Below, one piece after another: positions 1-28,511 of a DNA stretch of 28,917 nucleotides (position 1 is its first letter; every line of letters starts with the position of its first letter). A program made the translations under genes and the position numbers. The notes under the pieces are model-generated. The model made no database searches. It was not told where the DNA came from and saw nothing but the letters and a program-made list of their open reading frames with translations. This stretch comes from Thermoleophilaceae bacterium (GTDB lineage Bacteria; Actinomycetota; Thermoleophilia; Solirubrobacterales; Thermoleophilaceae): contig JBJMLJ010000270.1 in the NCBI GenBank assembly GCA_045805365.1, positions 1 through 28,917 of the forward strand, in the 5' to 3' direction.

Positions 1-103
1 GAAGCCGGCGACGGCTAGGAATGCTGCGGTGCTCGCCGGGCCAACGCCCCGGCTGCGCTCCTCGCTTGCGCCCCATTACTCCGGTGTGAGAGATTCGCGC
101 GCC

Positions 104-1036
104 GTGAGCGGCGATTCGAAGACCGCGTTCCTCCTGCCCGGCCAGGGCTCCCAGAAGGTCGGGATGGCGGCCAAGCTGCGTGAGACCGACGCCGACCTGG
201 TCGACGGCTACCTGAAGCGCGCGGACGAGGCCTCGGGCCTCGACGTGAGCCAGTTCGTCGACGAGGGCCCGATGGAGATGCTCACCCGGACCGACGTCGC
301 CCAGCCGGCGCTCTTCTCGATCTCGATGGCGGTCGTGGAGGTGGCCCGCGAGCGAGGGCTGCGCGCCGACTTCGTCGCCGGCCACAGCCTCGGCGAGTAC
401 ACGGCGGCCGCCGTCTCGGGAGCGCTGGACGTCGACGACGCCTTGCCGCTCGTCTGCGAGCGCGGCCGGCTGATGGCGGCGATCCAGTCGGAGCGGCCTG
501 GCGCGATGGCGGCGATCATCGGGCTGGGCCGCGAGCAGGTCGAGGAGCTCTGCTCGCGGGCGTCGGAGGCCGGGTTGGTCGCCCCCGCGAACATCAACTC
601 CGACAGCCAGATCGTCGCTTCGGGCGAGGAGGGCGGGATCGAGAGGCTGATCGAGCTCGCCGAGGAGGCCGGCGCGAAGCGGGCGCTGCGGCTCCAGGTT
701 GGAGCCGCCTTCCACAGCGAGCTGATGAAGCCGGTCCAGGAGAAGCTCGCCGCGAGGATGGAGGGCCTCACCTGGCGGGACCCCGAGCCCCCGCTCGTGG
801 CCAACTGCTCGGGCGAGGTCGTCAGCACCGGCGACGGCGTCCGTGAGGCGCTCATCACCCAGATCGCCAGCCCGGTCCTCTGGGTCGACTGCGTGCGGAC
901 CCTGCGCCAGGCGGGCGTGAATACCTTCGTCGAGCTCGGCCCTGGCCGGGTGCTGACCGGCCTGGTGCGCCAGATCGACCCCGAGGCCGAGCTGGTGAAC
1001 GCGGACTCGCGGGAAGCCCTGGCTCCCAGCGCCTAG
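104..1036 (+). CDS. fabD: Malonyl-CoA:ACP transacylase (FabD/MCAT)
   Basis: Motifs LLPGQGSQ, TDVAQPAL, catalytic GHSLGEY, AFHS and ELGPG. Start moved from 29 to the in-frame GTG at 104 (VSGDSKTAFLLPGQG), matching the usual FabD N-terminus. Confidence 0.95.
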   Translation: MSGDSKTAFLLPGQGSQKVGMAAKLRETDADLVDGYLKRADEASGLDVSQFVDEGPMEMLTRTDVAQPALFSISMAVVEVARERGLRADFVAGHSLGEYTAAAVSGALDVDDALPLVCERGRLMAAIQSERPGAMAAIIGLGREQVEELCSRASEAGLVAPANINSDSQIVASGEEGGIERLIELAEEAGAKRALRLQVGAAFHSELMKPVQEKLAARMEGLTWRDPEPPLVANCSGEVVSTGDGVREALITQIASPVLWVDCVRTLRQAGVNTFVELGPGRVLTGLVRQIDPEAELVNADSREALAPSA

Positions 1037-1977
1037 CTCCCGAGTACCCAGCGGCCGTCCTCCTGCCGCAGGGTGACCCGGTCGCCGCCCTCGTCCAGCT
1101 CGATCGTCGCCTCGCCTGCATCCACGTCGATCTGCACGCGCAGGGAGACGGGCGTCCGCGGCTCGGGCTCTGGTTCCGGCTCGGGCTCTGGTTCCGGCGC
1201 GGCCTCGGGCGCGGCCTCGGGCTCCGGCACCTCGGTGTCCTGGACCCGGGGCGCCTCCTCGACCGGCGTCGGCGCCGGCGTGACCGTGTCCTGGGGCGGT
1301 CCCGAGGGCGGAGGCAAGTCCGCGGGCTCCGGCTCGTTCGGCGGCGGGGCCGGCGGGACGGGCGCCGGCGTCACGGTTTCCTGGGGCGGACCCGACGGCG
1401 GCGGCAGGTCGGTGGGCGCCTCGGGGCCGGGCTGAGCCGCGGCGGGGGGCGGCCCTGGGGGTCCCGGCGGCGGCGGCGGGGGCGCGTGCGGTCCGGCCGG
1501 CGGCGGCGCGCCTGGGTCCGCCGGGGGCATCTCCGCCGTGGGCTCGGGCTGGGGCACGAACGTGTCCGGGGTCGGCGAAGGCCCTTCGGCAGGCGGCTCG
1601 GGGACCGAGTCGGGGACGCTGGCGATCCGCGTCGCACCCAGACCCTCCGGCGGCCCGGATGCCTCCGGCTCGGGCGAGGGGGGCGGCGCCGACAGCTGAG
1701 TGACCATGCGCGTGCCGCCAACCTCGATCTGGTCACCATCGGAGAGCCGGTGCGGAGCGGCGAGCCTGTTGCCGTTCACGAACGTGCCGTTCATCGAGCC
1801 CAGGTCCTCGATGACCCAGGCGTCGCCCTGGCGTATGAAGCGCGCGTGCTGACGTGACAGCTCCGGATCGTCGGCGAGGCGGCCGTCCTCGGAGCCGGTC
1901 CTGCCGATGATCAACTCGTCGTCGACCGGGATCTGCTGGCCCGACGCGTTCCCCTCGATAACCATCAGCTTCAACAT
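1033..1977 (-). CDS. FHA-domain protein with long Pro/Glu-rich linker and small C-terminal domain
   Basis: N-terminal FHA signature IIGR...LSRQHARF...DLGSMNGTFVNG, then about 180 aa of Pro-rich low-complexity sequence and a roughly 40 aa tail. Starts 2 nt after the cyclase stop. Confidence 0.9.
   Translation of the reverse strand: MLKLMVIEGNASGQQIPVDDELIIGRTGSEDGRLADDPELSRQHARFIRQGDAWVIEDLGSMNGTFVNGNRLAAPHRLSDGDQIEVGGTRMVTQLSAPPPSPEPEASGPPEGLGATRIASVPDSVPEPPAEGPSPTPDTFVPQPEPTAEMPPADPGAPPPAGPHAPPPPPPGPPGPPPAAAQPGPEAPTDLPPPSGPPQETVTPAPVPPAPPPNEPEPADLPPPSGPPQDTVTPAPTPVEEAPRVQDTEVPEPEAAPEAAPEPEPEPEPEPEPRTPVSLRVQIDVDAGEATIELDEGGDRVTLRQEDGRWVLGS
1160..1198. repeat. Perfect 18-nt tandem repeat (ggctcgggctctggttcc x2) encoding a (PE)n tract of the FHA linker
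   Basis: Units at 1160-1177 and 1178-1195 are identical. Confidence 0.9.
1271..1410. repeat. Degenerate ~50-nt duplication, 90-nt period, encoding DLPPPSGPPQ(E/D)TVTPAP twice
   Basis: 1271-1320 and 1361-1410 encode near-identical peptides with synonymous differences. Confidence 0.85.
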
Positions 1978-1979
1978 GC

Positions 1980-2327
1980 TCAGCCCTCAGAGTCGGATGC
2001 GTCCCAACTGTAGAACTCACGCGCTTGGGCGTCCTTCGGGGACTTCCACGTCTCGGGGTTGTACGGCGTGATGTACGCGTCGAGCTTGCGGCTGATCTCC
2101 TGGAACAGGGGGTGATTGCGTACCTCGTCGACCGTCTCGCCGAACTCGGTGTCCATTTCCACGTAGTGGACGTAGATGTCATCCAGCACGAAGAGGCTCC
2201 GGTGCCGCACCTTGGCGAGCCCCGGGAGGTCGCTCTCGTCCGATTGCTCGAACAGCTTGGCGACCTCGTCCTCCGAGCCCGGCTTGATGCGGGCGATGAT
2301 GCAGCCTCGCTGGACGCCGTCAGCCAT
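1980..2327 (-). CDS. Polyketide cyclase, TcmI / WhiE-ORFVII family
   Basis: IIARIKPGSEDEVAKLFEQSD...RHRSLF...YITPYNPETWKSPKDAQAREFYSW follows the TcmI-family pattern as I recall it. Confidence 0.92.
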   Translation of the reverse strand: MADGVQRGCIIARIKPGSEDEVAKLFEQSDESDLPGLAKVRHRSLFVLDDIYVHYVEMDTEFGETVDEVRNHPLFQEISRKLDAYITPYNPETWKSPKDAQAREFYSWDASDSEG

Positions 2328-2784
2328 TCTTCGCGGCCTCCTCCAGGCGCTCCTTGATGACGCCCATCTGCTCCTTGGTGCTCTTGTTCATGTACTCCTC
2401 GGCGGTCGCATCGTCCGCGGGGGCGTCCGGCTTCATCGAGAAGTCCTGGACCCAGCGCATCTTGGTGGAGCCGTCCTCCTCCTCGAAGTACCACTCGATG
2501 TTCATGTACTCGAAGGGGCCGGTCTCGATCCGGCGTGACTTCGACTGGTAGTTCGCCGGGTCGGCCTCGCGCTCGGACACCCAGCTCCAGACCTGGCCGT
2601 CGTACTCCGGGTCCGGGTGGGTGGTCAGCCGGAACTTGACCTTGTTTTCGCCCTCCTCTTCGATCACCTCCGCCTTCGCGTACTCGCTGAAGAGGTTGGG
2701 CCAGCTCTCGATGTCCATCATCCGCTCCCACACGAAGTCGCGCGGGGCTTCGATGACCACCTCGTTGTCGGTGTGCGCGGCCAT
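2320..2784 (-). CDS. Aromatase/cyclase, SRPBCC fold, TcmN-N / WhiE-ORFVI family
   Basis: MAAHTDNEVVI..WPNLFSEY..VWSWVSER..ETGPFEYMNI.W..RWVQDF closely follows the recalled WhiE-ORFVI/TcmN aromatase sequence. Confidence 0.95.
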   Translation of the reverse strand: MAAHTDNEVVIEAPRDFVWERMMDIESWPNLFSEYAKAEVIEEEGENKVKFRLTTHPDPEYDGQVWSWVSEREADPANYQSKSRRIETGPFEYMNIEWYFEEEDGSTKMRWVQDFSMKPDAPADDATAEEYMNKSTKEQMGVIKERLEEAAKNG

Positions 2785-2787
2785 TGG

Positions 2788-3048
2788 CTACTCCTTCTCC
2801 GCCAGCCGGCGGTTGGTGTACTCGATCGCCTGTCCCACGGTCGTGATCTCCGAGGCGTCCTCGTCCGGGATCTCGAAGCCGTAGTCCTGCTGCATGGCGA
2901 GCTGGATCTCGACGAACGCCAGCGAGTCGAGGCCCATATCCTCGAAGCTGGCTTCGGGGTCGTTCGTCACGCTGTCCTCCGGGAGCCCGACGCGCTCCAC
3001 CAGGATCCGCTTGAGATCATCGAAGGTGAACTGCCGGTCCACTGACAT
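2788..3048 (-). CDS. Acyl carrier protein of the type II PKS
   Basis: 86 aa, acidic, GLDSL phosphopantetheine site; GGAGG RBS at 3056-3060 on the minus strand. Confidence 0.95.
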   Translation of the reverse strand: MSVDRQFTFDDLKRILVERVGLPEDSVTNDPEASFEDMGLDSLAFVEIQLAMQQDYGFEIPDEDASEITTVGQAIEYTNRRLAEKE

Positions 3049-3060
3049 AGGCGTGCCTCC

Positions 3061-4833
3061 TTAGGTTGGGACTCCGGTTTGGTGTTGCGGCTTGGCCAGG
3101 GCCTTCAAAGTCGGTAGCTGCTCCTCGATCGCCTCCCGGCCGGCCGCCAGGAAGAGGTCGGCGAGGTGGAAGTCGCGCCAGCTCCCAGGGCCGAAGCGGG
3201 GGTGGAGCACGACGTCCGCAAGCTCCGCGTGCCTGATGCTGCCGTCCTGCGCGGAGAGGTCGTTGACCTCGAGGATCGTCTCGAGCATGCGCGTGCCCTG
3301 CTTCTTCTCCTCCTGGGGCGGAGGCGGCTCCAGCCCCGGCCAGGCGGGCAGGCTCTCGCGCGGCATCAGGTTCATGGAGACGACCACGTCGGCGCCCGCC
3401 TCGTAGGCCGCTCCGCTCGGCACCGGGACGAGCGCCAGCCCATCCACGAGCCGATGGCCCTCCATCTCGTACGGGGGGGCCATGCCGGCCAGCGCAGTGG
3501 CCGCCATCAGCGCCTCCCACAGGGGGCCGTCGCTGATCGGCGATGGGCGCCGCTCGGTCAGGTCGACCGCCATCGCCACCAGCGGGATCACGAGGTCGTC
3601 GAAGGTGCCGTTGTTGGTGGTGTCGCGGAACACCTGCTCGATCGTCTCCAGGCCCTTTGACGCACCCGCGAGGGTGAGCGTGAACAGCTCAGCCACGTTG
3701 TCGGGGTTGAACGCCTCGCGCAGGGTGCGGTCGACCTCTGACGAGTCCATGCCCATCGCCAGGTAGGCGCCGGCGATCGCGCCGATGCTGCTGCCGGCCA
3801 CGTAGTCGACTACGTAGCCCTCGCGCTCGAGACCCTGCAGCAAGCCCACGTGCGCGTAGCCCTTCGCCCCGCCCGCGCCGAGCGCCAGACCCAGCTTCGT
3901 GCGGGCCAGATGGCGGCCGAGCCAGGCCACGTCCTCCGGCGGGAGCGACCCGTTGTCCCTGCCGATCGAGCGGATCACCGGCAGGCCGGCGACCATGCGG
4001 CCGCGCTCGCGACCGCGCTGCTCCTCGACGAGCACGAGCTCGACGCGCCGACCCTCGAGCTCCTCCATTTGCGCGACGCTGGCGGCGTCCGGCTCGCCGT
4101 CGGCCAGAACGACGATCCGGTCGGTGTGCTCCCCGAGCTGCTGAGCGGAGCGGCCCTCGGCCCGCGCCGCCACCACGACCGTGCCGTGCCTCTCCAGCAT
4201 CTGGTCGATCCGCGCGACGGCCTCGTGGAAGCCCGTGCGCGTGTCGAGCCAGTCGACCTTGCGCGGGCTGGCCTTGCCGGCGGCCTCCACGACCTGCGGG
4301 ACGAGGTCGGCCAGGGAGCTGCTGAAGATCAGCCCGACGGCCTCGCCGCTCGACTCCTCCTCGGTCGCGCCCTGGTACGCGCGCAGCAGGCGACGCCGCA
4401 TGATCTTCGTGAAGTTGACGACGATCCCCGGGTGCTCCTCCATGAGCCGCTCGAAGTCCTTGCGCGACATCTCGAGCGCGCTCACATAGGAGCTGGCCAC
4501 CACCGTGACCGTGTGCCGGTCGCCCGTGACGAGCGACGTCGCCCCGATCACGTCGCCACGGCGCTGCTTGGACACCACGCGCTGGTCACCGGTCCCCGGC
4601 ATCGCCTGCGCCACTCCCTCGACGATCAGGAACATCGTCTCCCCGCGCTTGCCGGCACGCGAGATCTCGGCGCCGGGCGGGAAGCTGACCGGCTGCATCC
4701 GCTCCGAGATCCGGGCGAGCGCGTCGGTGTCCAGGCCGTCGAAGAGGGTGCACTGCTCGAGCGCGGCGAACGGCGACAGCGCGCCCGCCATCGACATCGA
4801 GGACATCAGCCGGTCGGTGGGGATCTCAGGCAT
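3061..4833 (-). CDS. cNMP-binding domain + patatin-like serine hydrolase (NTE-like architecture)
   Basis: N-terminal CAP-type fold (FPPGAEISRAG...MFLIVEG...GDVIG); C-terminal patatin motifs GAGGAKG, GSSIG and DGL. Start moved from 5070 to the ATG at 4833, which overlaps the ligase stop by 8 nt. Confidence 0.9.
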   Translation of the reverse strand: MPEIPTDRLMSSMSMAGALSPFAALEQCTLFDGLDTDALARISERMQPVSFPPGAEISRAGKRGETMFLIVEGVAQAMPGTGDQRVVSKQRRGDVIGATSLVTGDRHTVTVVASSYVSALEMSRKDFERLMEEHPGIVVNFTKIMRRRLLRAYQGATEEESSGEAVGLIFSSSLADLVPQVVEAAGKASPRKVDWLDTRTGFHEAVARIDQMLERHGTVVVAARAEGRSAQQLGEHTDRIVVLADGEPDAASVAQMEELEGRRVELVLVEEQRGRERGRMVAGLPVIRSIGRDNGSLPPEDVAWLGRHLARTKLGLALGAGGAKGYAHVGLLQGLEREGYVVDYVAGSSIGAIAGAYLAMGMDSSEVDRTLREAFNPDNVAELFTLTLAGASKGLETIEQVFRDTTNNGTFDDLVIPLVAMAVDLTERRPSPISDGPLWEALMAATALAGMAPPYEMEGHRLVDGLALVPVPSGAAYEAGADVVVSMNLMPRESLPAWPGLEPPPPQEEKKQGTRMLETILEVNDLSAQDGSIRHAELADVVLHPRFGPGSWRDFHLADLFLAAGREAIEEQLPTLKALAKPQHQTGVPT

Positions 4834-6136
4834 GGAGGGCGGCGCGGTCGGGCTTGCCCGAGGCCAGCAGCGGCAGCTCGGGCACGATTTCGATCTCGTA
4901 GGGCAGCTTGTAGCCGGCGATCCGCTCGCGGGCGAAGTGCAACAGGTCGGCCGGCGCCAGGTCGGCCTCGGTGACGACGAAGGCCTTGAGCGCCTCGCCC
5001 ATGCGCTCGTTGGGAACGGCGACGACGGCCGCCTGGCGGACGTCTGGATGCGTGAGCAGGCAGCCCTCAACCTCGGCCGGGAAGACGTTGAAGCCGCCGA
5101 CGTGCGCGACCTCCTTGGCCCGCCCGGAGATGTGGACGTTGCCGTCCTCGTCGATCGAGCCGAGGTCGCCGGTCCGGAACCAGTCGCCGTCGAAGGCCTC
5201 GGCGGTCAGCTCGGGCTTGCGGAAGTAGCCGGGGGTGACGCCCGGGCCGCGCACCTGGATCTCCTCGCGCTCTACGCGGAACTCGAAGCCGGGCAGCGGG
5301 CGGCCCACCGAGCCGTGGCGCACCTCCGGCGGGTCGTCGGGCCGGCAGCTGGCCGCGGCGCCCAGCTCGGTCATCCCGAAGAGGTTGAGGATCCTGGCGC
5401 CGGCGTCGTCCAGGCGCCCGAGCAGCTCGGCGGGGCAGACCGCCCCGGCGACGAAGCCGCCGCGCAGCCGGGGCGGGAGCGCCCGCAGCAGGCCAGCGAA
5501 GAGCGTGGGGGAGCCGTGGACGATCGTCGCCTCGGGGTCGATGCCGTCGAGGGCGAGGCCCGGCTCGAGCATCTGGACGCGCGCACCCGCGTGAAGCCCG
5601 GCGAGCAGCGCGGCGAGGCCGAAGGCATGGGAGGCGGGCACGGGAAGGGCGATCACGTCGTCCTCGCTCAGCTCGAGGACGCCGGCCAGCACCTCCGCCT
5701 GGTCGGCCAGCGCCGCCCGCGTGACCAGCGCGCCCTTGGGCTCGCCGGTCGTGCCGGAGGTGTAGAGGATCGCGCCGACGTCCGGATCACACGGCTCTGT
5801 GTCCTCTGCCACCTGTCCTATGCCGTCCTGGCCGAGCACGAGCCACGGCAGCTCGCTTCCCCTCGCGAACTCGGCGAACGAGTAGCCCCGATGCTCCGCG
5901 ACCGACAGGACGAGCGCCGGGTCGGCGTCCGTGAGTATTCGGCCGAGGTCGTACTCGCGCAGCCGCGCGCTCAGGGGAACGGGGACCGCGCCCGCCCTCC
6001 AGGCGGCGAGCAGCGCCGTTCGGAGCAGCGGTTCGTTGGGCGCGACGATCGCCACGCGGGCGCCGTGGCCGGGGAGCCTGGCCGCCAGCTCTTCGACTGC
6101 GGCGGAGTCCTGGCCGAGGTCCGCGAGGTCCAGCAT
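4826..6136 (-). CDS. AMP-dependent acyl-CoA/acyl-ACP ligase (ANL superfamily)
   Basis: YTSGTTGEPKG, FGMTE, FRTGDLG, GRAKE and YKLP motifs; short N-terminus (436 aa). Confidence 0.92.
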   Translation of the reverse strand: MLDLADLGQDSAAVEELAARLPGHGARVAIVAPNEPLLRTALLAAWRAGAVPVPLSARLREYDLGRILTDADPALVLSVAEHRGYSFAEFARGSELPWLVLGQDGIGQVAEDTEPCDPDVGAILYTSGTTGEPKGALVTRAALADQAEVLAGVLELSEDDVIALPVPASHAFGLAALLAGLHAGARVQMLEPGLALDGIDPEATIVHGSPTLFAGLLRALPPRLRGGFVAGAVCPAELLGRLDDAGARILNLFGMTELGAAASCRPDDPPEVRHGSVGRPLPGFEFRVEREEIQVRGPGVTPGYFRKPELTAEAFDGDWFRTGDLGSIDEDGNVHISGRAKEVAHVGGFNVFPAEVEGCLLTHPDVRQAAVVAVPNERMGEALKAFVVTEADLAPADLLHFARERIAGYKLPYEIEIVPELPLLASGKPDRAALHA

Positions 6137-6143
6137 CAGGGCC

Positions 6144-7418
6144 TCAGCCCGCGCGCCGAAGGACCAGCGCGCTGTTGAAACCGCCGTACCCGCGAGCGTT
6201 CACGAGCACGGTCCCGATCGCGGCCTTGCGGGCAGAGCCCGTGATGAAGTCGAGGCCGTCGCAGCCCTCCGCCGGCTCGTCGAGGTTGATCGTCGGCGGG
6301 ATCACGCCGTCGCGCATGGACAGCATCGCGGCGGCCACGTCGAGCGACGCCCCGCCGGCGTAGAGCCGGCCGGTCATCGACTTGGGCGCCGTAACCGGGG
6401 TGTCTGATGCACCCTTGCCGAAGACCTTCTTTATCGCCTGCGCCTCGAGCTTGTCCCACTCGGGGATGCCGGCGCCGTCGGCGAAGATCGCATCCACGTC
6501 GCCGGGGCCGATGCCGGCGTCGTCCAGCGCGATCTGCATCGCGCTCGCGAGACGACGGCCGTCCGGCGCCGGCTCGCCCCAGTGGTAGCCGTCGCTCGTG
6601 GCGCCGTAGCCGAGGACCTCGGCGTAAACCTGCGGCGCCCCGCGCTCTTTGGCGGTCGACTCGTTCTCGGCGATCACGATGGCGCCGCCCTCGCCCGGCA
6701 CGTAGCCATTGGCGGCGCTGTCGAAGGGCCGGAACGCCTGATCGGGATCGGTCTCGGTGCTCAGGTAGCCGTTCTCGAGCTGGCAGGTCAGGGCGTAGGG
6801 GCCGATCGGCGCCTCGAGCCCACCGCTGACGACGAAGTCGACGCCGCGCCGGATCGTGCGCCGGGAGTGTTGGACGGCCTCGAGGCCGCCGGCGCCCTCG
6901 GCGAGCACGACGCCGCACGGGCCCTTCATGTTGTGCTTGATCGAGATCTGGCCGGTGGTGGCGGCGTAGAACCAGGCGATCGACTGGTAGGCGCCGACGA
7001 AGCCCGGCCCCTTGCCCCAGAGGTTCTGGATCTCCTTCTGGCCGAAGTCGTTGCCGCCGGACGAGCTGGCCGTGATGACACTCATCGAGTAGGGGTCGTG
7101 GTCCTCGGGGTTGAAGTCGGCGTCCTCCAGCGCCATCTGCGTGGCGCCGAGGGCCATCCAGGTCCAGCGATCGGTCTGGACCATGAGCCGCTTGTCGATG
7201 TACTGCTCGGGGTCGAAGCCGTTGACCTCGCCGGCGAGCTGGGCCTCGTAGCGGGACGGGTCGAACTTGGTGATCCGCCCGATCGCGTTCTTGCCCTCGC
7301 ACGCCGCCTTCCACCAGGCCTCCGTGCCGATGCCGCCCGGCGCCACCACGCCGAGGCCGGTCAGGACCATCTTGCGGTCCCGCGAGGGGAGGCTCGTGCG
7401 CGGCGCCGAGGCCTCCAT
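6144..7418 (-). CDS. Type II PKS chain-length factor (KS-beta), WhiE-like
   Basis: VLTGLGVVAPGG, QTDRWT, FGQKEIQNLW, YQSIAWFYAATTGQISI and GPCGVV motifs; no active-site Cys. True start is the ATG at 7418, coupled to KS-alpha by a TGATG overlap. Confidence 0.95.
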   Translation of the reverse strand: MEASAPRTSLPSRDRKMVLTGLGVVAPGGIGTEAWWKAACEGKNAIGRITKFDPSRYEAQLAGEVNGFDPEQYIDKRLMVQTDRWTWMALGATQMALEDADFNPEDHDPYSMSVITASSSGGNDFGQKEIQNLWGKGPGFVGAYQSIAWFYAATTGQISIKHNMKGPCGVVLAEGAGGLEAVQHSRRTIRRGVDFVVSGGLEAPIGPYALTCQLENGYLSTETDPDQAFRPFDSAANGYVPGEGGAIVIAENESTAKERGAPQVYAEVLGYGATSDGYHWGEPAPDGRRLASAMQIALDDAGIGPGDVDAIFADGAGIPEWDKLEAQAIKKVFGKGASDTPVTAPKSMTGRLYAGGASLDVAAAMLSMRDGVIPPTINLDEPAEGCDGLDFITGSARKAAIGTVLVNARGYGGFNSALVLRRAG

Positions 7419-8779
7419 CAGGCGCTGACCTCCATCAGCTCGGGCGGGCGGGCGAGGATCATGGCCGACTGGAAGCCCCCGAACCCGCTGGCGGTCGACA
7501 GCGCGCAGTCGATCTGGCCCCGGCGCGCCTCGTTCGGCGTGTAGTCGAGGTCGCACTCGGGGTCGCGGTTCTCCCAGTTCGCGGTGGGCGGCACGATCCC
7601 GCGGTCGATGGCCAGCGCGCAGGTGGCCATCTCAATCGCCCCGATCGCACCGAGCGAGTGGCCGATCATCGACTTGATCGAGCTGATCGGGACGTTGTAG
7701 GCGTGGTCGCCTAGCGAGTTCTTGTAGGCGGCGGTCTCGTGCCGGTCGTTCTGCTTGGTGCCCGAGCCGTGGGCGTTGATGTAGTGGATGTCATCGGGCT
7801 GCGTGCCGCCCTGGCGCATGGCGTCCTCGATCGCGTCCGTCATCTCCGTCGCGTCCGGCTTCAGGCCGGTCATGTGGTAGGCGTTGCCGCGGCTGGCGAA
7901 GCCCGTGACCTCGCAGTAGATGTGCGCGCCGCGATCCAGGGCGCGGTCGAGGTCCTCCAGTATCAGCACCGCGCCGCCCTCGCCCATCACGAAGCCGTCG
8001 CGATCGCGGTCAAAGGGGCGCGAGGCGTGCCCCGGGTCGTCGTTGCGCCGGGAGGTCGCCTTGATCGGGTCGAAGCAGGCCATCGAGATCGGCGAGACCG
8101 GGGATTCCGCCGCGCCGGAGATGACGATGTCGGCCTCGCCGTCCTGAATCAGCTGGTGGCCGTACCCGATGGCGTCGATGCCCGACGTGCAGCCGGTCGA
8201 GATCACCGTGGCGGGTCCGTGAGCGCCGAACTTGACCGCCACCTCGCTGGCCAGGCTGCTCGGGATCAGGCCGGCGTAGAGGAAGGGCACGGCGTAGTCG
8301 GGATCCACGAGCCAATCGCGGCCGCGGTCGCTGGTGGCGATGTAGCCGTCCTCCAGGACCATTGTGCCGCCCACCGCCGAGCCGAGCGTGACGCCCATCC
8401 GGTCGCGGTCGATGTCCTCGAGCACGAGGGTGAGCGACTGCTCGCGGGCAACGGGGATCATCCGCGACGCCGTCCGATCCTCCTCCTCGATCAGGAGGGC
8501 GGCGTCGTTCATCGCCTCCATAGCGGCCACGGCGGCGAACTGGATGTACCGGTCCATCCGCCGTGTCTCCTGCTCGGTGAGGCCCGAGGCGATCGGGTCG
8601 AAGTCGGCCTCGGCGGCGATCTGAGAGCGGAAGCCGGCGGGGTCGAAGAAGGTGATCTGCCGGGTCGATGTCTTCCCGGCGGTGATCGTGTCCCAGAACT
8701 CGTCGCGGGTCACTCCACCCGGGGCGACCACGCCGACGCCGGTGACGGCCGTCCGCCTAAGACCTGCGTCGTTCCCCAC
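7418..8779 (-). CDS. Type II PKS ketosynthase alpha
   Basis: STGCTSGIDAIG (catalytic Cys), YINAHGSGTKQND, KSMIGHSLGAIG and FGGFQSA motifs; GTG start. Confidence 0.97.
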   Translation of the reverse strand: MGNDAGLRRTAVTGVGVVAPGGVTRDEFWDTITAGKTSTRQITFFDPAGFRSQIAAEADFDPIASGLTEQETRRMDRYIQFAAVAAMEAMNDAALLIEEEDRTASRMIPVAREQSLTLVLEDIDRDRMGVTLGSAVGGTMVLEDGYIATSDRGRDWLVDPDYAVPFLYAGLIPSSLASEVAVKFGAHGPATVISTGCTSGIDAIGYGHQLIQDGEADIVISGAAESPVSPISMACFDPIKATSRRNDDPGHASRPFDRDRDGFVMGEGGAVLILEDLDRALDRGAHIYCEVTGFASRGNAYHMTGLKPDATEMTDAIEDAMRQGGTQPDDIHYINAHGSGTKQNDRHETAAYKNSLGDHAYNVPISSIKSMIGHSLGAIGAIEMATCALAIDRGIVPPTANWENRDPECDLDYTPNEARRGQIDCALSTASGFGGFQSAMILARPPELMEVSA

Positions 8780-8782
8780 GCG

Positions 8783-9187
8783 CTATTCGGTGTCCACGTG
8801 CCCCAGCGGGGGCTCCGGGGCGAGCGGACTGAGATGGAAGACGATGAAGGCCTCCTCATCGCCCTCGTTGCGGAGGCGGTGTCTCATGTTCATCGGGACC
8901 ATCATGCCGCTGCTCTCCTTGACCTCGTGCGGCTCGTCGTCGAGGTCGGCGGTGATCGTGCCCCGGACGCAGTAGATGAACTCCTCCGAGTAGGGGTGGT
9001 AGTGCTCGGAGATCCGGTCGCCCGGCGCGATCGTCGCCACCCCCATGAAGCCGGAGGTCGAGCCGACCGTCTTGGGGCTCAGCAGGGTCTGGACCACCCC
9101 GCCACGGCGGGTGTCCTCGGCCGCCTCCTCCCTGGAGAAAAAGCCGGCGTCGCGTTCTGCCTTGGGGTGCTCGGTCTGCTCTGGCAT
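8783..9187 (-). CDS. Cupin-fold polyketide cyclase, TcmJ / WhiE-ORFII / CurC family
   Basis: RRGG...[17 protein letters not shown]...[15 protein letters not shown] is the family signature; first gene of the PKS operon. Confidence 0.93.
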
Positions 9188-9569: not shown

Positions 9570-10085
9570 CTACTCGCCGGCGTGAAGCAGCCGGTACTGC
9601 CCGGCGTGGAAGAGCAGAGGCTCGACCTCGGGGTCCGCTCCCAGGGCCACGACCTCGCCGATGAAGATCAGGTGGTCGCCGGCCTCGTGCTCGGCGTGCA
9701 GCAGGCAGTCCAGGAAGCCGGCCGCGCCGTCGAGGATCGGCGAGCCGGTGACCTCCTTGCGGTGAGGGACGCCCCGGAAGGCGTCGCGGCCCTTGGGCCG
9801 GTCCTTCGAGGCGAAGAAGCGCGAAACGGGCTCCTGCTCGGAGCCCAGGATGTTCACCGCGAAGCAACCGTTGCGGCGCAGGATGTCGGCGCCCGTCGCC
9901 GTGCTGCCGATGCAGATCAGGATCAGTGGCGGGTCGAGCGAGACGGAGGTGAACGCGTTGGCCGTCATCCCGTAGGCGTGGTCCTCGCCTCGGGTCGTAA
10001 TGACGTTGATGCCGGTCGCGAAGCCGCCCACGGCGTCGCGGAAGTCCCGGCCGGTGAAGGTCTGGGAGTCGCCTCTTTCAGCCAC
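9570..10085 (-). CDS. Flavin reductase, HpaC-like
   Basis: FRDAVGGFATGINVITT, GMTANAFTSVSLDPPL and AGDHLIFIGEV motifs. Confidence 0.93.
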   Translation of the reverse strand: MAERGDSQTFTGRDFRDAVGGFATGINVITTRGEDHAYGMTANAFTSVSLDPPLILICIGSTATGADILRRNGCFAVNILGSEQEPVSRFFASKDRPKGRDAFRGVPHRKEVTGSPILDGAAGFLDCLLHAEHEAGDHLIFIGEVVALGADPEVEPLLFHAGQYRLLHAGE

Positions 10086-10091
10086 GTGTGG

Positions 10092-10952
10092 CTATTCGGT
10101 CTGGCCGAGCCGCTCGAGCCGGGCGCGCACCACCTGGTCGAAGTCCCCGGTGGTGCCGAGCGAGCCGGCCACGACGTCGCGGAAGGTGTCTCGCTCCATG
10201 GCGAGCAGCTTGGTGGGCTCAGCCGCCCTGAGCGTCGAGTTACGAGGCGTATCGCGCATGATCGAGATCTCGCCGTGGAGCTCGCCCGGCCCGAGTGAGC
10301 CGACCTGCTCGTCGTCCCGCAGGACGTCGACCTTGCCCTCGACCACGATGAAGAACTTGTCGGCGGGGGCTCCCTCGCGGACGATCACCTCGCCCGCGTC
10401 GGCCTCCATGCTCTGGAGCTCGCCGCTGATCGTCTCCTCGACGTCCTCCGGCAGCTCGTCGTAGACGTTGAGGACGGTCTCACGGTCGTAGTCGACCCCG
10501 AACTCCTCGCTCGACTTCTCGCCGCTGCCCCTGGAGTTGTCGATGAACTCGAGCTGGGTGGGGACGATCTTCATGAAGTAGATGCCCACGGTGGAGCGGC
10601 CGGCCGCAAGGGTCGGGAACTTGCCGCCGAACAGGAAGGCGGCGCGCGCGATCTCCTCGCCGTCGAGGACGACCCCGCATTCCCCGTTGGCCTGGATCCC
10701 CTTCGTCTGGCGCCAGTCCTCGGAGTACTCGTCGATCGCCAGCGAGACGAACGGGTTCTGCTGGACGTGCTTGGCGGTGATCGTCTCCGGCCGCACCCAG
10801 AGGTACATCGTGGGGCCGCGGTTGACGTAGAGGAAGGTCGCGGCACGCGGAACGCCGCCCGCGGAGGCGGTCGCGAGCGTCAGGGTCTGCTGCTGCTCCA
10901 GGTAGTCGAGCACGTGCTGTGGCAGCTCCAGGGCTGCCTTGTCTTCAGCCAT
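10092..10952 (-). CDS. PNPOx-like split-barrel domain fused to a cNMP-binding domain
   Basis: N-terminal TLTLATASAGGVPRAA...KHVQQNPFVSLAID; C-terminal GEVIVREGAPADKFFIVVEG...GELHGE...PRNSTLRA. Start moved to the ATG at 10952, which follows a GGAGAGGAGG RBS. Confidence 0.85.
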   Translation of the reverse strand: MAEDKAALELPQHVLDYLEQQQTLTLATASAGGVPRAATFLYVNRGPTMYLWVRPETITAKHVQQNPFVSLAIDEYSEDWRQTKGIQANGECGVVLDGEEIARAAFLFGGKFPTLAAGRSTVGIYFMKIVPTQLEFIDNSRGSGEKSSEEFGVDYDRETVLNVYDELPEDVEETISGELQSMEADAGEVIVREGAPADKFFIVVEGKVDVLRDDEQVGSLGPGELHGEISIMRDTPRNSTLRAAEPTKLLAMERDTFRDVVAGSLGTTGDFDQVVRARLERLGQTE

Positions 10953-11061
10953 TCGCGTGCCTCCTCTCCTTCTCGATCGAAGGCGCACGCTATCGCAGGT
11001 TGCGGCCCCCGGCAGGACGCGAATAGTCTCGCCCGACTGTCGACCTGGGATGGAGTGAACC

Positions 11062-11799
11062 TTGGATTTGGGACTGAGCGGCAAGAGGGCGGTTGTGACC
11101 GGCGGCTCGCGGGGGATCGGCCGCGCGATCGTGCTCGGGCTGGCGGAGGGCGGGGCGTCGGTTGCCGCCTGCTTCAACCGCGAGTCCGACGACGTCAAGC
11201 AGCTGCGCGGCGAGCTCGAGCAGATCGAGGGCGAGAGCTACCTGACCCAGGCGGATGTGTCCGACCCGGATTCGGCGACGGGGTTCGTCGGCGAGGCAGC
11301 GGGCAAGTTCGGCGGACTCGACATCCTCGTCAACAACGCCGGGGTCGTCAGCCATCAGATGATCCAGGACCTCTCGCTCGAGGAGTGGCACCGCGTCATC
11401 GACGTCAACCTCACCGCGATCTTCCTGATCTCGAAGGCCGCGCTGCCTCACATGGGCGAGGGCGGCTCGATCGTGAACATCACCTCAGCGGTAGCGATGC
11501 GCGGCATGCCGGCCCGGACGCACTACATCTCGTCCAAGGCCGGGCTGATCGGGTTCACGCGCGCCCTGTGCAAGGAGGTCGGCAAGGACGGCATCCGCGT
11601 GAACGCGCTGGCCCCCGGGATCATCGAGACCGACCAGACGGCCGGCCTGGACGAGGCCGGCCGCGCCCGCTACTCGGGCCTGGCCGCCCTGAACCGGCTC
11701 GGGCAGTCGGAGGAGATCGCCACCGTGGCGTTGTTCCTGGCCAGCGACCTGGCGAGCTTCGTCTCGGGCGTGACCCTGAACGTGGACGGCGGGATCTAG
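11062..11799 (+). CDS. SDR ketoreductase, resembling BenL/PdmG/FdmO-type polyketide KRs
   Basis: TGGSRGIG, NNAG, YxxxK (HYISSK) and VDGG motifs. MDLGLSGKRAVV start, VSH and RTHY resemble pentangular-polyketide KRs from memory. Confidence 0.88.
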   Translation: MDLGLSGKRAVVTGGSRGIGRAIVLGLAEGGASVAACFNRESDDVKQLRGELEQIEGESYLTQADVSDPDSATGFVGEAAGKFGGLDILVNNAGVVSHQMIQDLSLEEWHRVIDVNLTAIFLISKAALPHMGEGGSIVNITSAVAMRGMPARTHYISSKAGLIGFTRALCKEVGKDGIRVNALAPGIIETDQTAGLDEAGRARYSGLAALNRLGQSEEIATVALFLASDLASFVSGVTLNVDGGI

Positions 11800-26720: not shown

Positions 26721-28511
26721 ATGAGTAGCGATCGAAGCAAGTCCATCGTCGAGATGGGGGCGGTTCGGGCGCCCGGCGACCGCTACGACGTGGCGATCTT
26801 GGGCGGTGGGCTAGCCGGCCTGACGCTCGCGATTCAGCTCAAGCAGGCGCGGCCGGATACAAGCGTGTTGGTGCTCGAGAAGCGCGAGGGTCCTGCTCCG
26901 CTCGCCGCGTTCAAGGTGGGCGAATCGACGGTCCCGAGCGGCGCCCATTACTTCGCGGACGTCGTCGGCATGAGCGATCACCTCCACAACGAACAATTGA
27001 TCAAGTGCGGCCTGCGCTACTTCCCTCCGGGCGACGGCAACCGCGACATCACCAAGCGACCCGAGATGGGTCCCCCAGGATTCCCGCCACACGACAACTA
27101 CCAGATAGACCGTGGGCTGTTTGAGAACAAGCTCGCCGCTCGCGCCCGCGCGCTAGGTGTGGAAGTGGCGCAGGGCTCACGCGTCGGCGAGGTGACCTTC
27201 GGGGATGACGTCCATAGCATTGCGTTCCAACACTTCGGCGATGATGCGACGACATCCGCGCGGTGGGTGGTAGACGCGACTGGTCGTGCCTCATTGCTAA
27301 AGCGCAAGCTGGGGCTCGAGAGGGATTGCGGACACCACATCAACTCGTCTTGGTTCCGCCTCGCCGGCGGCCTCGACATCGAGGACTGGGGCCGCGAAGA
27401 CGACGAGTGGATGGGCGCGGTAAGCCAACCGGGGATTCGCAAATTCAGCACCAATCACCTTCTCGGCGAGGGCTACTGGATCTGGATGATCCCTCTCTCA
27501 TCGGGGCCGATCAGCATCGGCGTGTGCGCCGATCCGCGGTTTCACCCGTTCGAGCGGATCGACACATTCGACGGCCTGCTCGACTGGCTTCGCGAGCACG
27601 AACCGCCGCTGGCCGAGTCGGTCGAGGGTCGCGTCGAAGACATCGAGGACTTTCTGCGTGTGGAGGACTTCGCCTACGGCGTCGAGCGGATCCTCTCGCC
27701 GGAGCGGTGGGCTCTGGTCGGCGAGGCGGGGGCGTTTACGGACCCGTTTTACTCGCCGGGCTCGGACTTCATCTGCTACAGCAACACATTCACCAGCGAG
27801 GTGATCAAGCGAGACCTCGACGGAGAGGACATCAGCGACCGTCTGACTTACTACGACGACCTCTACCAGCGCGCGTTCGAGCACACGATTTCGAGGTACC
27901 AAGACAGTTACACGATCTTCGGTAATGCATGGGTTGCATGCGGGCTGCTTGTCTGGGACTTCTACGCGAACCACTGTGGACTCGTTCTATGCACGGTTAA
28001 GAACAAGCTGACGGATTTCGAGTTCATGAAGAGCGTCGACTCGGAGCTCGATTCCCTGTTCCGGCTGAACATCAACATGCACAAGCTCTTCCGCGAGTGG
28101 CACGAGCTCGAGAACAAGGAGCGCCCGCCCGCATTCATCAAGCCATTCCCAATCCTGGTCGGCGGCTTGCTCGGCTTGACCAAGGACTATCCCGACGACG
28201 ACGCCATCCGTGAGGAGCTGCGCACGCAGGTTCGCAATTCAGAGGCGTTGGCGGTGGCGATGTTCCATCGGGCCGCGAGCGCTCTGCCGGAGCCACCGTC
28301 CCCGGACAAGGCGGTGAACCCGTACGCGGTCGGCTTGGATCCTGACAAGTGGGACGCGGACGGACTATTCGAAGCGCCCGGCCTGACGCTTGCGGAGGCG
28401 AAGGAGATCGCCGCCGGGGTCGACGCCATCTGGGATGACTCGGTCAACCCGTTCGCAGGTGCCGCGCCCCCCGGCGGCGGACCGCCTGCCGGCGTCGGAC
28501 CGCCCGCTTAG
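26721..28511 (+). CDS. Flavin-dependent halogenase
   Basis: GGGLAG, KVGEST, candidate catalytic Lys in QLIKCG, WIWMIP (WxWxIP) and FTDPFYSPG; C-terminal PPGGGPPAGVGPPA tail. Confidence 0.85.
   Translation: MSSDRSKSIVEMGAVRAPGDRYDVAILGGGLAGLTLAIQLKQARPDTSVLVLEKREGPAPLAAFKVGESTVPSGAHYFADVVGMSDHLHNEQLIKCGLRYFPPGDGNRDITKRPEMGPPGFPPHDNYQIDRGLFENKLAARARALGVEVAQGSRVGEVTFGDDVHSIAFQHFGDDATTSARWVVDATGRASLLKRKLGLERDCGHHINSSWFRLAGGLDIEDWGREDDEWMGAVSQPGIRKFSTNHLLGEGYWIWMIPLSSGPISIGVCADPRFHPFERIDTFDGLLDWLREHEPPLAESVEGRVEDIEDFLRVEDFAYGVERILSPERWALVGEAGAFTDPFYSPGSDFICYSNTFTSEVIKRDLDGEDISDRLTYYDDLYQRAFEHTISRYQDSYTIFGNAWVACGLLVWDFYANHCGLVLCTVKNKLTDFEFMKSVDSELDSLFRLNINMHKLFREWHELENKERPPAFIKPFPILVGGLLGLTKDYPDDDAIREELRTQVRNSEALAVAMFHRAASALPEPPSPDKAVNPYAVGLDPDKWDADGLFEAPGLTLAEAKEIAAGVDAIWDDSVNPFAGAAPPGGGPPAGVGPPA
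28467..28505 (+). repeat. Coding PPGGGPPAGVGPP tail of the halogenase
   Basis: ccc ccc ggc ggc gga ccg cct gcc ggc gtc gga ccg ccc, one codon before the stop. Confidence 0.8.

Follow-up and report, generated by a model that had tools for sequence, protein, structure and literature searches.

A patatin gene of the NTE family in a conserved slot before the acyl carrier protein gene of a clade of whiE-like type II polyketide synthase clusters

The stretch of DNA analysed here (hereafter the window) is a contig of 28,917 nucleotides from a Thermoleophilaceae bacterium (assembly GCA_045805365.1, contig JBJMLJ010000270.1), with a G+C content of ~70%. It carries a type II polyketide synthase (PKS) cluster, in the core of which lies a gene for a patatin-type hydrolase with an N-terminal cyclic nucleotide monophosphate (cNMP)-binding-like domain. 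Nine minus-strand genes stand head to tail, with intergenic spacings ranging from an 8-nt overlap up to 12 nt, in the order cupin - ketosynthase alpha (KSalpha) - chain length factor (CLF) - ligase - patatin - acyl carrier protein (ACP) - aromatase/cyclase (ARO/CYC) - TcmI cyclase - FHA (Table 1). The patatin open reading frame (ORF) is intact (590 aa, ATG at 4831-4833, TAA at 3061-3063). Its ATG and the ligase stop overlap in ATGCCTGA, and its TAA is followed by 12 nt containing GGAGG and then by the ACP ATG at 3048. The original prediction of an intact patatin-motif gene, overlapping the ligase stop and ending 12 nt before the ACP, is borne out by ORF, junctions and motifs alike, far beyond chance. 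It had also placed this gene in the PKS core, and Pfam identifies the two flanking genes as an AMP-binding ligase and a PP-binding ACP. Judging from the junctions, the patatin gene is predicted to be transcribed and translationally coupled within the nine-gene operon. The PKS core is complete, i.e., KSalpha has its active-site Cys, the CLF is Cys-less (EGAGG) and the ACP has the DSL motif; by its gene content the cluster is assigned to the whiE/pentangular type of aromatic polyketide. Direct adjacency of KSalpha, CLF and ACP is not found, the ligase and the patatin intervening.

Table 1. Coordinates of the patatin gene, of its domains and motifs and of neighbouring genes in the window.
Feature	Positions	Strand	Basis
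590-aa NTE-family protein gene (cNMP-binding-like + NTE P-loop-like + patatin), stop included	3061..4833	-	ORF list, Pfam, AF2 model, Rv2565 fold match
cNMP-binding-like domain, ~residues 20-155	4369..4776	-	Pfam, alignment, model
Degenerate phosphate-binding cassette, residues 97-110	4504..4545	-	alignment to PKA RI-alpha/CRP, codon check
Middle alpha/beta domain, ~residues 164-291, NTE P-loop-like, ParA/MinD-like fold, without Walker A	3961..4344	-	model, Atlas
Patatin catalytic domain and C-terminal helices, ~residues 313-580	3094..3897	-	Pfam, Foldseek
Oxyanion-hole motif G319-A-G-G-A-K324-G (residues 319-325)	3859..3879	-	alignment, codon check
Nucleophile Ser349 codon, G-S-S349-I-G at 347-351	3787..3789	-	alignment, codon check
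Catalytic Asp464 codon, D464-G-L	3442..3444	-	alignment, codon check
TcmJ-like cupin, first gene of the operon	8783..9187	-	Pfam Cupin_2
KSalpha, Cys197 in GCTSG	7418..8779	-	Pfam, motif
CLF (KS-beta); ATG at 7418 shares 1 base with the KSalpha stop; Gly (codon 6894-6896) at the KS-Cys position	6144..7418	-	Pfam, alignment
ANL (AMP-binding) ligase, 436 aa; stop overlaps the patatin start	4826..6136	-	Pfam, homology
ACP (PP-binding), 86 aa, GLDS42L, Ser codon 2923-2925	2788..3048	-	Pfam, codon check
Monodomain ARO/CYC (SRPBCC polyketide cyclase)	2320..2784	-	Pfam Polyketide_cyc
TcmI-like polyketide cyclase	1980..2327	-	Pfam Cyclase_polyket
FHA-domain protein, Pro-rich tail, last gene of the operon	1033..1977	-	Pfam
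FabD-type malonyl-CoA:ACP transacylase (MAT), convergent, cluster edge	29..1036	+	Pfam
Flavin reductase (9570-10085) and PNPOx-like/cNMP-binding fusion (10092-11198)	9570..11198	-	homology
Flavin-dependent-halogenase-family protein, 596 aa, WxWxIP motif, PltA/CmlS-like	26721..28511	+	homology, motif

Two Pfam families are recognized in the patatin protein, both well above their gathering scores: cNMP_binding (PF00027; residues 49-134, E 9e-15) and Patatin (PF01734; residues 316-470, E 5e-24). Neither Acyl_transf_1 nor any of the Pfam thioesterase families is matched. The AlphaFold2 (AF2) model (pLDDT 89, pTM 0.83, built on 81 homologues) consists of three packed domains, i.e., a cyclic-nucleotide-binding (CNB) beta-barrel, an alpha/beta domain and the patatin domain with long C-terminal helices; neither a membrane anchor nor a signal sequence is seen in it. 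The N-terminal domain has the CNB fold, with PKA, CRP and HCN matched by both sequence and fold. The nearest ESM Atlas clusters of the middle domain bear PF24179 (NTE_Ploop), and its structural neighbours are ParA/MinD, which is to be taken as a lead only. The GAGGAKG motif and those of Ser349 and Asp464 are invariant in 79/79 aligned relatives.

The closest solved structure is that of PlpD of Pseudomonas aeruginosa (5fya: sequence E 6e-19, Foldseek E 8e-17, TM-score by target 0.84; also 5fqu). The resemblance concerns the patatin domain: PlpD is a lipase, the passenger of a type Vd secretion system, and has neither sensor nor P-loop-like domain. In the AlphaFold/Swiss-Prot set the top Foldseek match is Rv2565 of M. 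tuberculosis (UniProt P9WIY7, 583 aa), annotated as 'uncharacterized NTE family protein' and aligned over residues 22-576 vs. 16-582 (E 3e-38). Length, three-domain order and patatin Ser-Asp dyad are shared, although sequence identity is only 21%; we know of no PKS context for Rv2565. The last cNMP domain, the P-loop-like domain and the patatin domain of PNPLA6/NTE, PNPLA7, SWS and Nte1 superpose on residues ~35-590 (E ~1e-30, TM-score by query 0.60-0.66). These eukaryotic proteins differ by their size (1300-1900 aa), endoplasmic reticulum membrane location, extra cNMP domains and transmembrane anchor. They are (lyso)phosphatidylcholine hydrolases with no link to polyketides. The architecture is thus that of the known NTE family and the protein is not a new fusion. 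Sequence and model together describe a soluble, three-domain bacterial NTE-family protein with predicted Ser349/Asp464 acyl hydrolase activity. It must be mentioned that a 682-aa protein (P0071; L009:10001-12049) was considered as a natural cNMP-patatin-ACP fusion and rejected: its patatin and ACP matches are separate, the KS, CLF and cyclase genes of the same locus are broken into frameshifted fragments, and the fusion is probably a frameshift artefact of long-read assembly.

Placement of the gene was compared among relatives of the patatin protein. A word-indexed search gave more than 1000 of them, and the best 120, mostly from Thermoleophilia-type metagenome-assembled genomes (MAGs), were examined: all are cNMP + patatin proteins (46-99% identity). 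An exhaustive search gave 455 clusters (at 50% identity) at E <=1e-30. The loci of the best 80 of at least 379 genomic relatives, with 10-kb flanks, were scanned with the window proteins. The patatin is PKS-embedded in 48 of these 80 loci, in the order cupin-KSalpha-CLF-[ligase]-patatin-ACP-ARO/CYC, 41 with the ligase and 7 without it; the other 32 are without PKS genes. The ACP gene comes next after the patatin gene in 48/48 embedded loci, the gap between the two being estimated at 12 nt (median). An independent sample was retrieved with KSalpha (80 metagenome contigs, KSalpha identity 67-87%), 30 contigs of which are long enough to judge. In 29 of these 30 the patatin lies between CLF or ligase and ACP (19 CLF-ligase-patatin, 10 CLF-patatin), and ten further contigs end within the ligase. 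Homologous clusters therefore do not lack the patatin, which answers the neighbourhood check asked for by the original prediction and goes against the first of its two refuting conditions. The single CLF-ACP locus (L195:4276-7977, KSalpha 68%) has the classical cupin-KS-CLF-ACP-ARO/CYC order without patatin, and is a natural reference against which the contribution of the patatin can be measured. A distant patatin relative (42% identity) is again found in the order CLF-patatin-ACP-ARO/CYC; the contigs of two others (P0136, P0151) are too short to show their context. More than 100 related clusters are now known.

The whiE, sch and cur clusters of Streptomyces share with the window the gene set and its order: TcmJ-like cupin, KSalpha, CLF, ACP, ARO/CYC, TcmI-like cyclase, SchA/CurD and antibiotic biosynthesis monooxygenase (ABM). 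In the sampled whiE-like loci (KSalpha 52-61% identical to that of the window), cupin-KS-CLF is followed by an ACP-sized gap, ARO/CYC and TcmI, CLF and ACP being adjacent. In the window-type clusters, on the contrary, ~3 kb (ligase + patatin) or ~1.7 kb (patatin) separate CLF from ACP. In the Streptomyces-like CLF loci of a phylum-wide sample, ACP or cyclase comes directly after CLF, with no room for a patatin; no conclusion relies on the unpublished genomes G821 and G593. The patatin slot before the ACP is the defining trait of an entire clade of whiE-like type II PKS clusters.

Pairwise divergence of the patatin is correlated with that of KSalpha and CLF (Spearman 0.66 and 0.68, respectively, vs. 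0.74 for KSalpha-CLF; Mantel p ~0.001), which fits a co-inheritance of the patatin with the cluster. The patatin evolves faster: mean pairwise identity is 0.59, vs. 0.81 for KSalpha and 0.72 for CLF. No second patatin copy was found in five genomes holding an embedded copy. Protein family and PKS type are each already known separately. What appears unreported is an NTE-family patatin as a near-universal member of the core operon of a type II PKS clade. The statement that no such component was known in a type II PKS core agrees with the literature search, in which no paper joining patatin with type II PKS was found; for the type II PKS of Solirubrobacter/Thermoleophilia, only counts of biosynthetic gene clusters were found.

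The cluster is rare and patchy, since in even samples of whole taxa the patatin was found in 2/301 genomes of the class of the window, and a KSalpha orthologue in 2/201 genomes of the order holding locus L037. The patatin-bearing cluster is also seen in MAGs labelled Planctomycetota, Acidobacteriota, 'delta/alpha proteobacterium' and Iamiaceae (L015, L016, L020, L029, L031, L051, L067, L089); these occurrences correspond either to whole-cluster horizontal transfer or to mislabelled bins.

Of the 32 PKS-less copies, 30 group together in the patatin tree with strong support, adjacent to a PKS-embedded clade of Solirubrobacterales. When the tree is rooted with more distant cNMP-patatins, ligase-less PKS-embedded copies branch off first within the ingroup and the stand-alone clade remains deeply nested, with weak basal supports (66, 81, 33). 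Five genomes with a stand-alone copy contain no KSalpha orthologue, only FabF-level KS matches (42-44% identity), and no neighbouring ACP is present at the stand-alone loci. All the catalytic residues are retained in these copies. In 27/31 PKS-less loci the patatin is flanked by 2-5 paralogues of the halogenase-family gene found at the other end of the window, e.g., one in L026 that is 59% identical to it. The pair formed by the PNPOx-cNMP fusion and the flavin reductase is located near the patatin in five or six PKS-less loci, and accompanies it in PKS clusters as well as outside them (L010, L023, L057, L074, L082, L084, L087). Other neighbours vary, e.g., L026 has UbiD/UbiX and L025 has a ligase along with Trp-pathway-like genes, a TrpF/TrpC/ligase/TrpD/TrpA-like set following there. 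PKS-less loci (L019-L088; e.g., L026:1411-17483, L025:3933-18619) further contain genes for lactonase-like beta-propeller proteins, together with a divergent AhpC-TSA_2 gene. Such a neighbourhood may be a decayed or a different biosynthetic island. We infer that the stand-alone lineage lost the PKS core and kept the patatin together with some tailoring-type genes.

The N-terminal domain deserves a separate description. In its phosphate-binding cassette, G-E-L-A-L...P-R-A-A-T of PKA RI-alpha is aligned with G-A98-T-S-L...R-H107-T-V-T of the patatin protein: the canonical Glu of PKA and CRP (contact with the ribose 2'-OH) is replaced by Ala98 and the canonical Arg (contact with the phosphate) by His107. 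Among 79 relatives, the Glu is retained in 20/47 PKS-embedded vs. 2/32 stand-alone copies, and the Arg in 36/47 vs. 32/32. Nearly all of the ~20 PKS-embedded orthologues with the Glu also have the Arg, and the cassette of the Gaiellales-type orthologues, IGEMSLVTGEPR[ST]ATV, is fully canonical; orthologues with a canonical cassette are encoded, e.g., in L012 and L013. Gating by cyclic nucleotides is thus plausible for the family as a whole, as judged from the cassettes, and doubtful for the window copy and its nearest relatives, because Ala98 and His107 replace the canonical contacts. The protein had been named 'cyclic-nucleotide-gated': by Pfam the name holds as the assignment of a domain and not as a property, and the second-messenger control then proposed becomes doubtful for this copy. 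The host genome (a 3.4-Mb MAG) encodes at least 18 class III nucleotidyl cyclase domains (e.g., C458:2006-2515, C345:2685-3188). Four of them lie on the single contig C345, and the capacity for cyclic-nucleotide signalling is large for such a genome size. It can also be noted that two cNMP-domain proteins, i.e., the patatin protein and the PNPOx-cNMP fusion, share one neighbourhood.

Type II PKSs generally have no dedicated off-loading or editing enzyme, and both priming and release of whiE-type poly-beta-ketone chains are still poorly understood. Patatins form acyl-Ser intermediates, and some of them act as thioesterases or transacylases; their fold class, FabD/lysophospholipase-like, is also that of the malonyl-CoA:ACP transacylases. 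With this background, the conserved slot suggests that the NTE-type patatin is probably a working part of the pathway. Release or editing of ACP-bound chains, as first put forward, is plausible on the basis of the motifs and of the gene order. That the enzyme works on such chains, as an acyl hydrolase or as a transacylase, is proposed tentatively, with a little less than even confidence. Ser349 would take an acyl group from the thioester on the ACP of the cluster, giving an acyl-Ser349 intermediate. This intermediate would then be (i) hydrolysed, leading to the release of the finished chain or to the editing of a mis-primed or stalled ACP, or (ii) handed on, by transacylation or priming. The patatin would thereby fill the role of the dedicated thioesterase or editing acyltransferase that type II PKSs usually miss. 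The sensor domain would modulate the activity and may respond to cAMP/cGMP in orthologues with an intact cassette. Since both Glu and Arg contacts are lost in the window copy, its sensor would probably act nucleotide-free or with another ligand. The complete proposal, i.e., a dedicated release, editing or priming enzyme of a widespread type II PKS clade, acting on the ACP-bound chain and switched by cAMP where the cassette is intact, is rather unlikely to hold in all its parts.

Possible functional analogues of such an enzyme can be cited. The editing/priming acyltransferases of the ZhuC type (R1128) and the acyl hydrolases of the PedC type (trans-AT, i.e., trans-acyltransferase, systems) are serine enzymes which remove or transfer ACP acyl groups. 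Their genes adjoin those for starter units, and in a broad sense their fold class is that of the patatins. They are FabD-type Ser-His enzymes without sensor domain, whereas the window protein has the patatin Ser-Asp dyad, i.e., neither the Ser-His of FabD nor the Ser-His-Asp of alpha/beta-hydrolases. It is thus not a member of the dedicated PKS thioesterases or editing acyltransferases, and the comparison is a possible analogy of function without any claim of membership.

Several points weigh against an ACP-directed, nucleotide-switched patatin: (i) the degenerate cassette of the window copy, already described; (ii) the characterised patatin/NTE enzymes known to us all act mainly on lipid O-esters; (iii) no functional study was found in the literature search on Rv2565; (iv) adjacency of the patatin and ACP genes is not the same as physical interaction; (v) in a clade of 30 genomes an intact patatin exists without KSalpha orthologue or adjacent ACP. 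From this last point it follows that the enzyme has, or gained, a PKS-independent substrate, and that a purely ACP-directed role is not forced. The prediction of a patatin-ACP complex gave a score of 0.00 vs. a mark of 0.32; as it was run without controls, it counts neither for nor against binding. The patatin was also considered as a substitute for FabD, which is unlikely because a FabD-type MAT is encoded in or near many of the clusters (homologues with 56-66% identity within 10 kb of many related clusters).

The lipid substrate suggested by points (ii) and (v) leads to a different explanation, which is possible with a rather low probability. The enzyme would act on a membrane glycerolipid, either freeing an acid which, once activated (by the ligase in clusters that have one), is used as a non-acetate starter, or attaching the polyketide to a lipid or removing it. 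The persistence of the patatin in PKS-less genomes fits this, as do the fold and domain order shared with the NTE (lyso)phospholipases (Rv2565, Nte1, PNPLA6/7, SWS) and the fact that the closest solved structure is a lipase; the strict slot adjoining the ACP and the lack of membrane anchor and signal sequence in the model do not. The ligase bears on both sides. It directly precedes the patatin in 41/48 (patatin-retrieved) and 19/29 (KSalpha-retrieved) clusters, but it is absent in 7/48 and 10/29, i.e., in about one quarter of the patatin clusters, most of which have no other ligase close by. The idea that the patatin frees fatty acids for the ligase to load, which had been offered as an alternative, cannot therefore be its general role. 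The ligase, which is unusually short (436 aa) and reaches no NCBIfam cut-off, has feruloyl-CoA synthetase, malonyl-CoA synthetases, oxalate-CoA ligase and the succinylbenzoyl-CoA ligase MenE as nearest relatives of solved structure (E 1e-51 to 1e-40). A fatty acyl-AMP ligase was considered and is not supported, no mark of one being found. The position of the ligase-less clusters as first branches of the rooted patatin tree, with its weak support, hints that the ligase was inserted later.

The CLF residue was examined in the same context. A Gly occupies the position of the act Gln and of the KS Cys in 44/44 related clusters, with or without ligase (L010-L081, L091-L101). As that Gln is implicated in decarboxylative priming, its replacement speaks for a non-acetate starter freed from lipid. 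However, the Streptomyces-like CLFs without patatin have at this position Gln (5), Glu (3, whiE-like ADEAGG), Ala (1) or Gly (1). The Gly being found with or without ligase, and non-Gln residues also without patatin, this residue does not single out the patatin clusters. The proposal that the missing Gln makes the patatin an obligatory priming enzyme was rejected on these same grounds, i.e., the Gly is universal and non-Gln residues are also seen in patatin-less Streptomyces-like CLFs. If the enzyme does act on lipids, a pigment-type polyketide would be linked to the envelope.

It is less probable still, and unlikely on the whole, that the patatin is an accessory passenger, i.e., an NTE-type lysophospholipase serving membrane homeostasis or self-protection, co-expressed with the cluster, perhaps controlled by cAMP, and taking no part in the biosynthetic chemistry. 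The survival of the gene with all its catalytic residues in a clade without PKS is consistent with this, and so are the company of a second cNMP protein (PNPOx-cNMP with flavin reductase) inside and outside PKS clusters, the cyclase domains of the genome, numbering at least 18, and an evolution faster than that of the core enzymes. A passenger would not be expected, however, to keep an exact slot with translational coupling in 29/30 clusters selected by KSalpha, nor to keep it across MAGs labelled Thermoleophilia, Acidimicrobiia, Planctomycetota and Acidobacteriota; nor would it be expected to be the sole patatin copy in the five genomes mentioned above.

An anti-phage effector of the CBASS CapV/CapE or Pycsar type, i.e., a cyclic-nucleotide-activated phospholipase present in the cluster by chance, is very improbable and was rejected on context: the structural matches include CapE and CapV and weak PADLOC matches exist (Pycsar cNMP domains and CBASS phospholipases, E 1e-9 to 1e-4), but these are limited to single domains, no cyclase domain lies on the contig of the window (C270) and no cyclase is adjacent, the setting is not a defence island, the cassette is degenerate and the gene is fixed in a biosynthetic operon across dozens of species. 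CapV/CapE share the patatin fold and have no CNB domain, while the Pycsar effectors share the cNMP-binding domain and have no patatin domain.

In one clade of type II PKS clusters, distributed among uncultured soil Actinomycetota and members of a few other phyla, a gene for an NTE-type serine hydrolase has become fixed right before the ACP gene, a finding surprising to PKS specialists. The bacterial NTE family, Rv2565 included, thereby gains a defined genetic context; among its relatives in eukaryotes is the disease gene PNPLA6. If the patatin acts on the carrier protein, as tentatively favoured here, it would enlarge the type II PKS toolbox by a new enzyme class and possibly by a second-messenger switch on polyketide output. 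If this action is also switched by cAMP in orthologues with an intact cassette, the enzyme would be (i) the first patatin with demonstrated activity on a carrier protein and (ii) the source of a first defined biochemical role, and of a tractable assay, for the bacterial NTE family and for NTE sensor domains. If, on the contrary, it is a lipase passenger, it would be a curiosity of cluster architecture.

Elsewhere in the window, tailoring genes include five ABM genes, SchA/CurD, two short-chain dehydrogenases/reductases, an amidohydrolase, ABC-2 permeases and a P450. Three FAD enzymes are also encoded, one of which is the flavin-dependent-halogenase-family protein of Table 1. FHA-domain genes recur a few kb from related clusters, often in multiple copies (e.g., L030, L059, L165).

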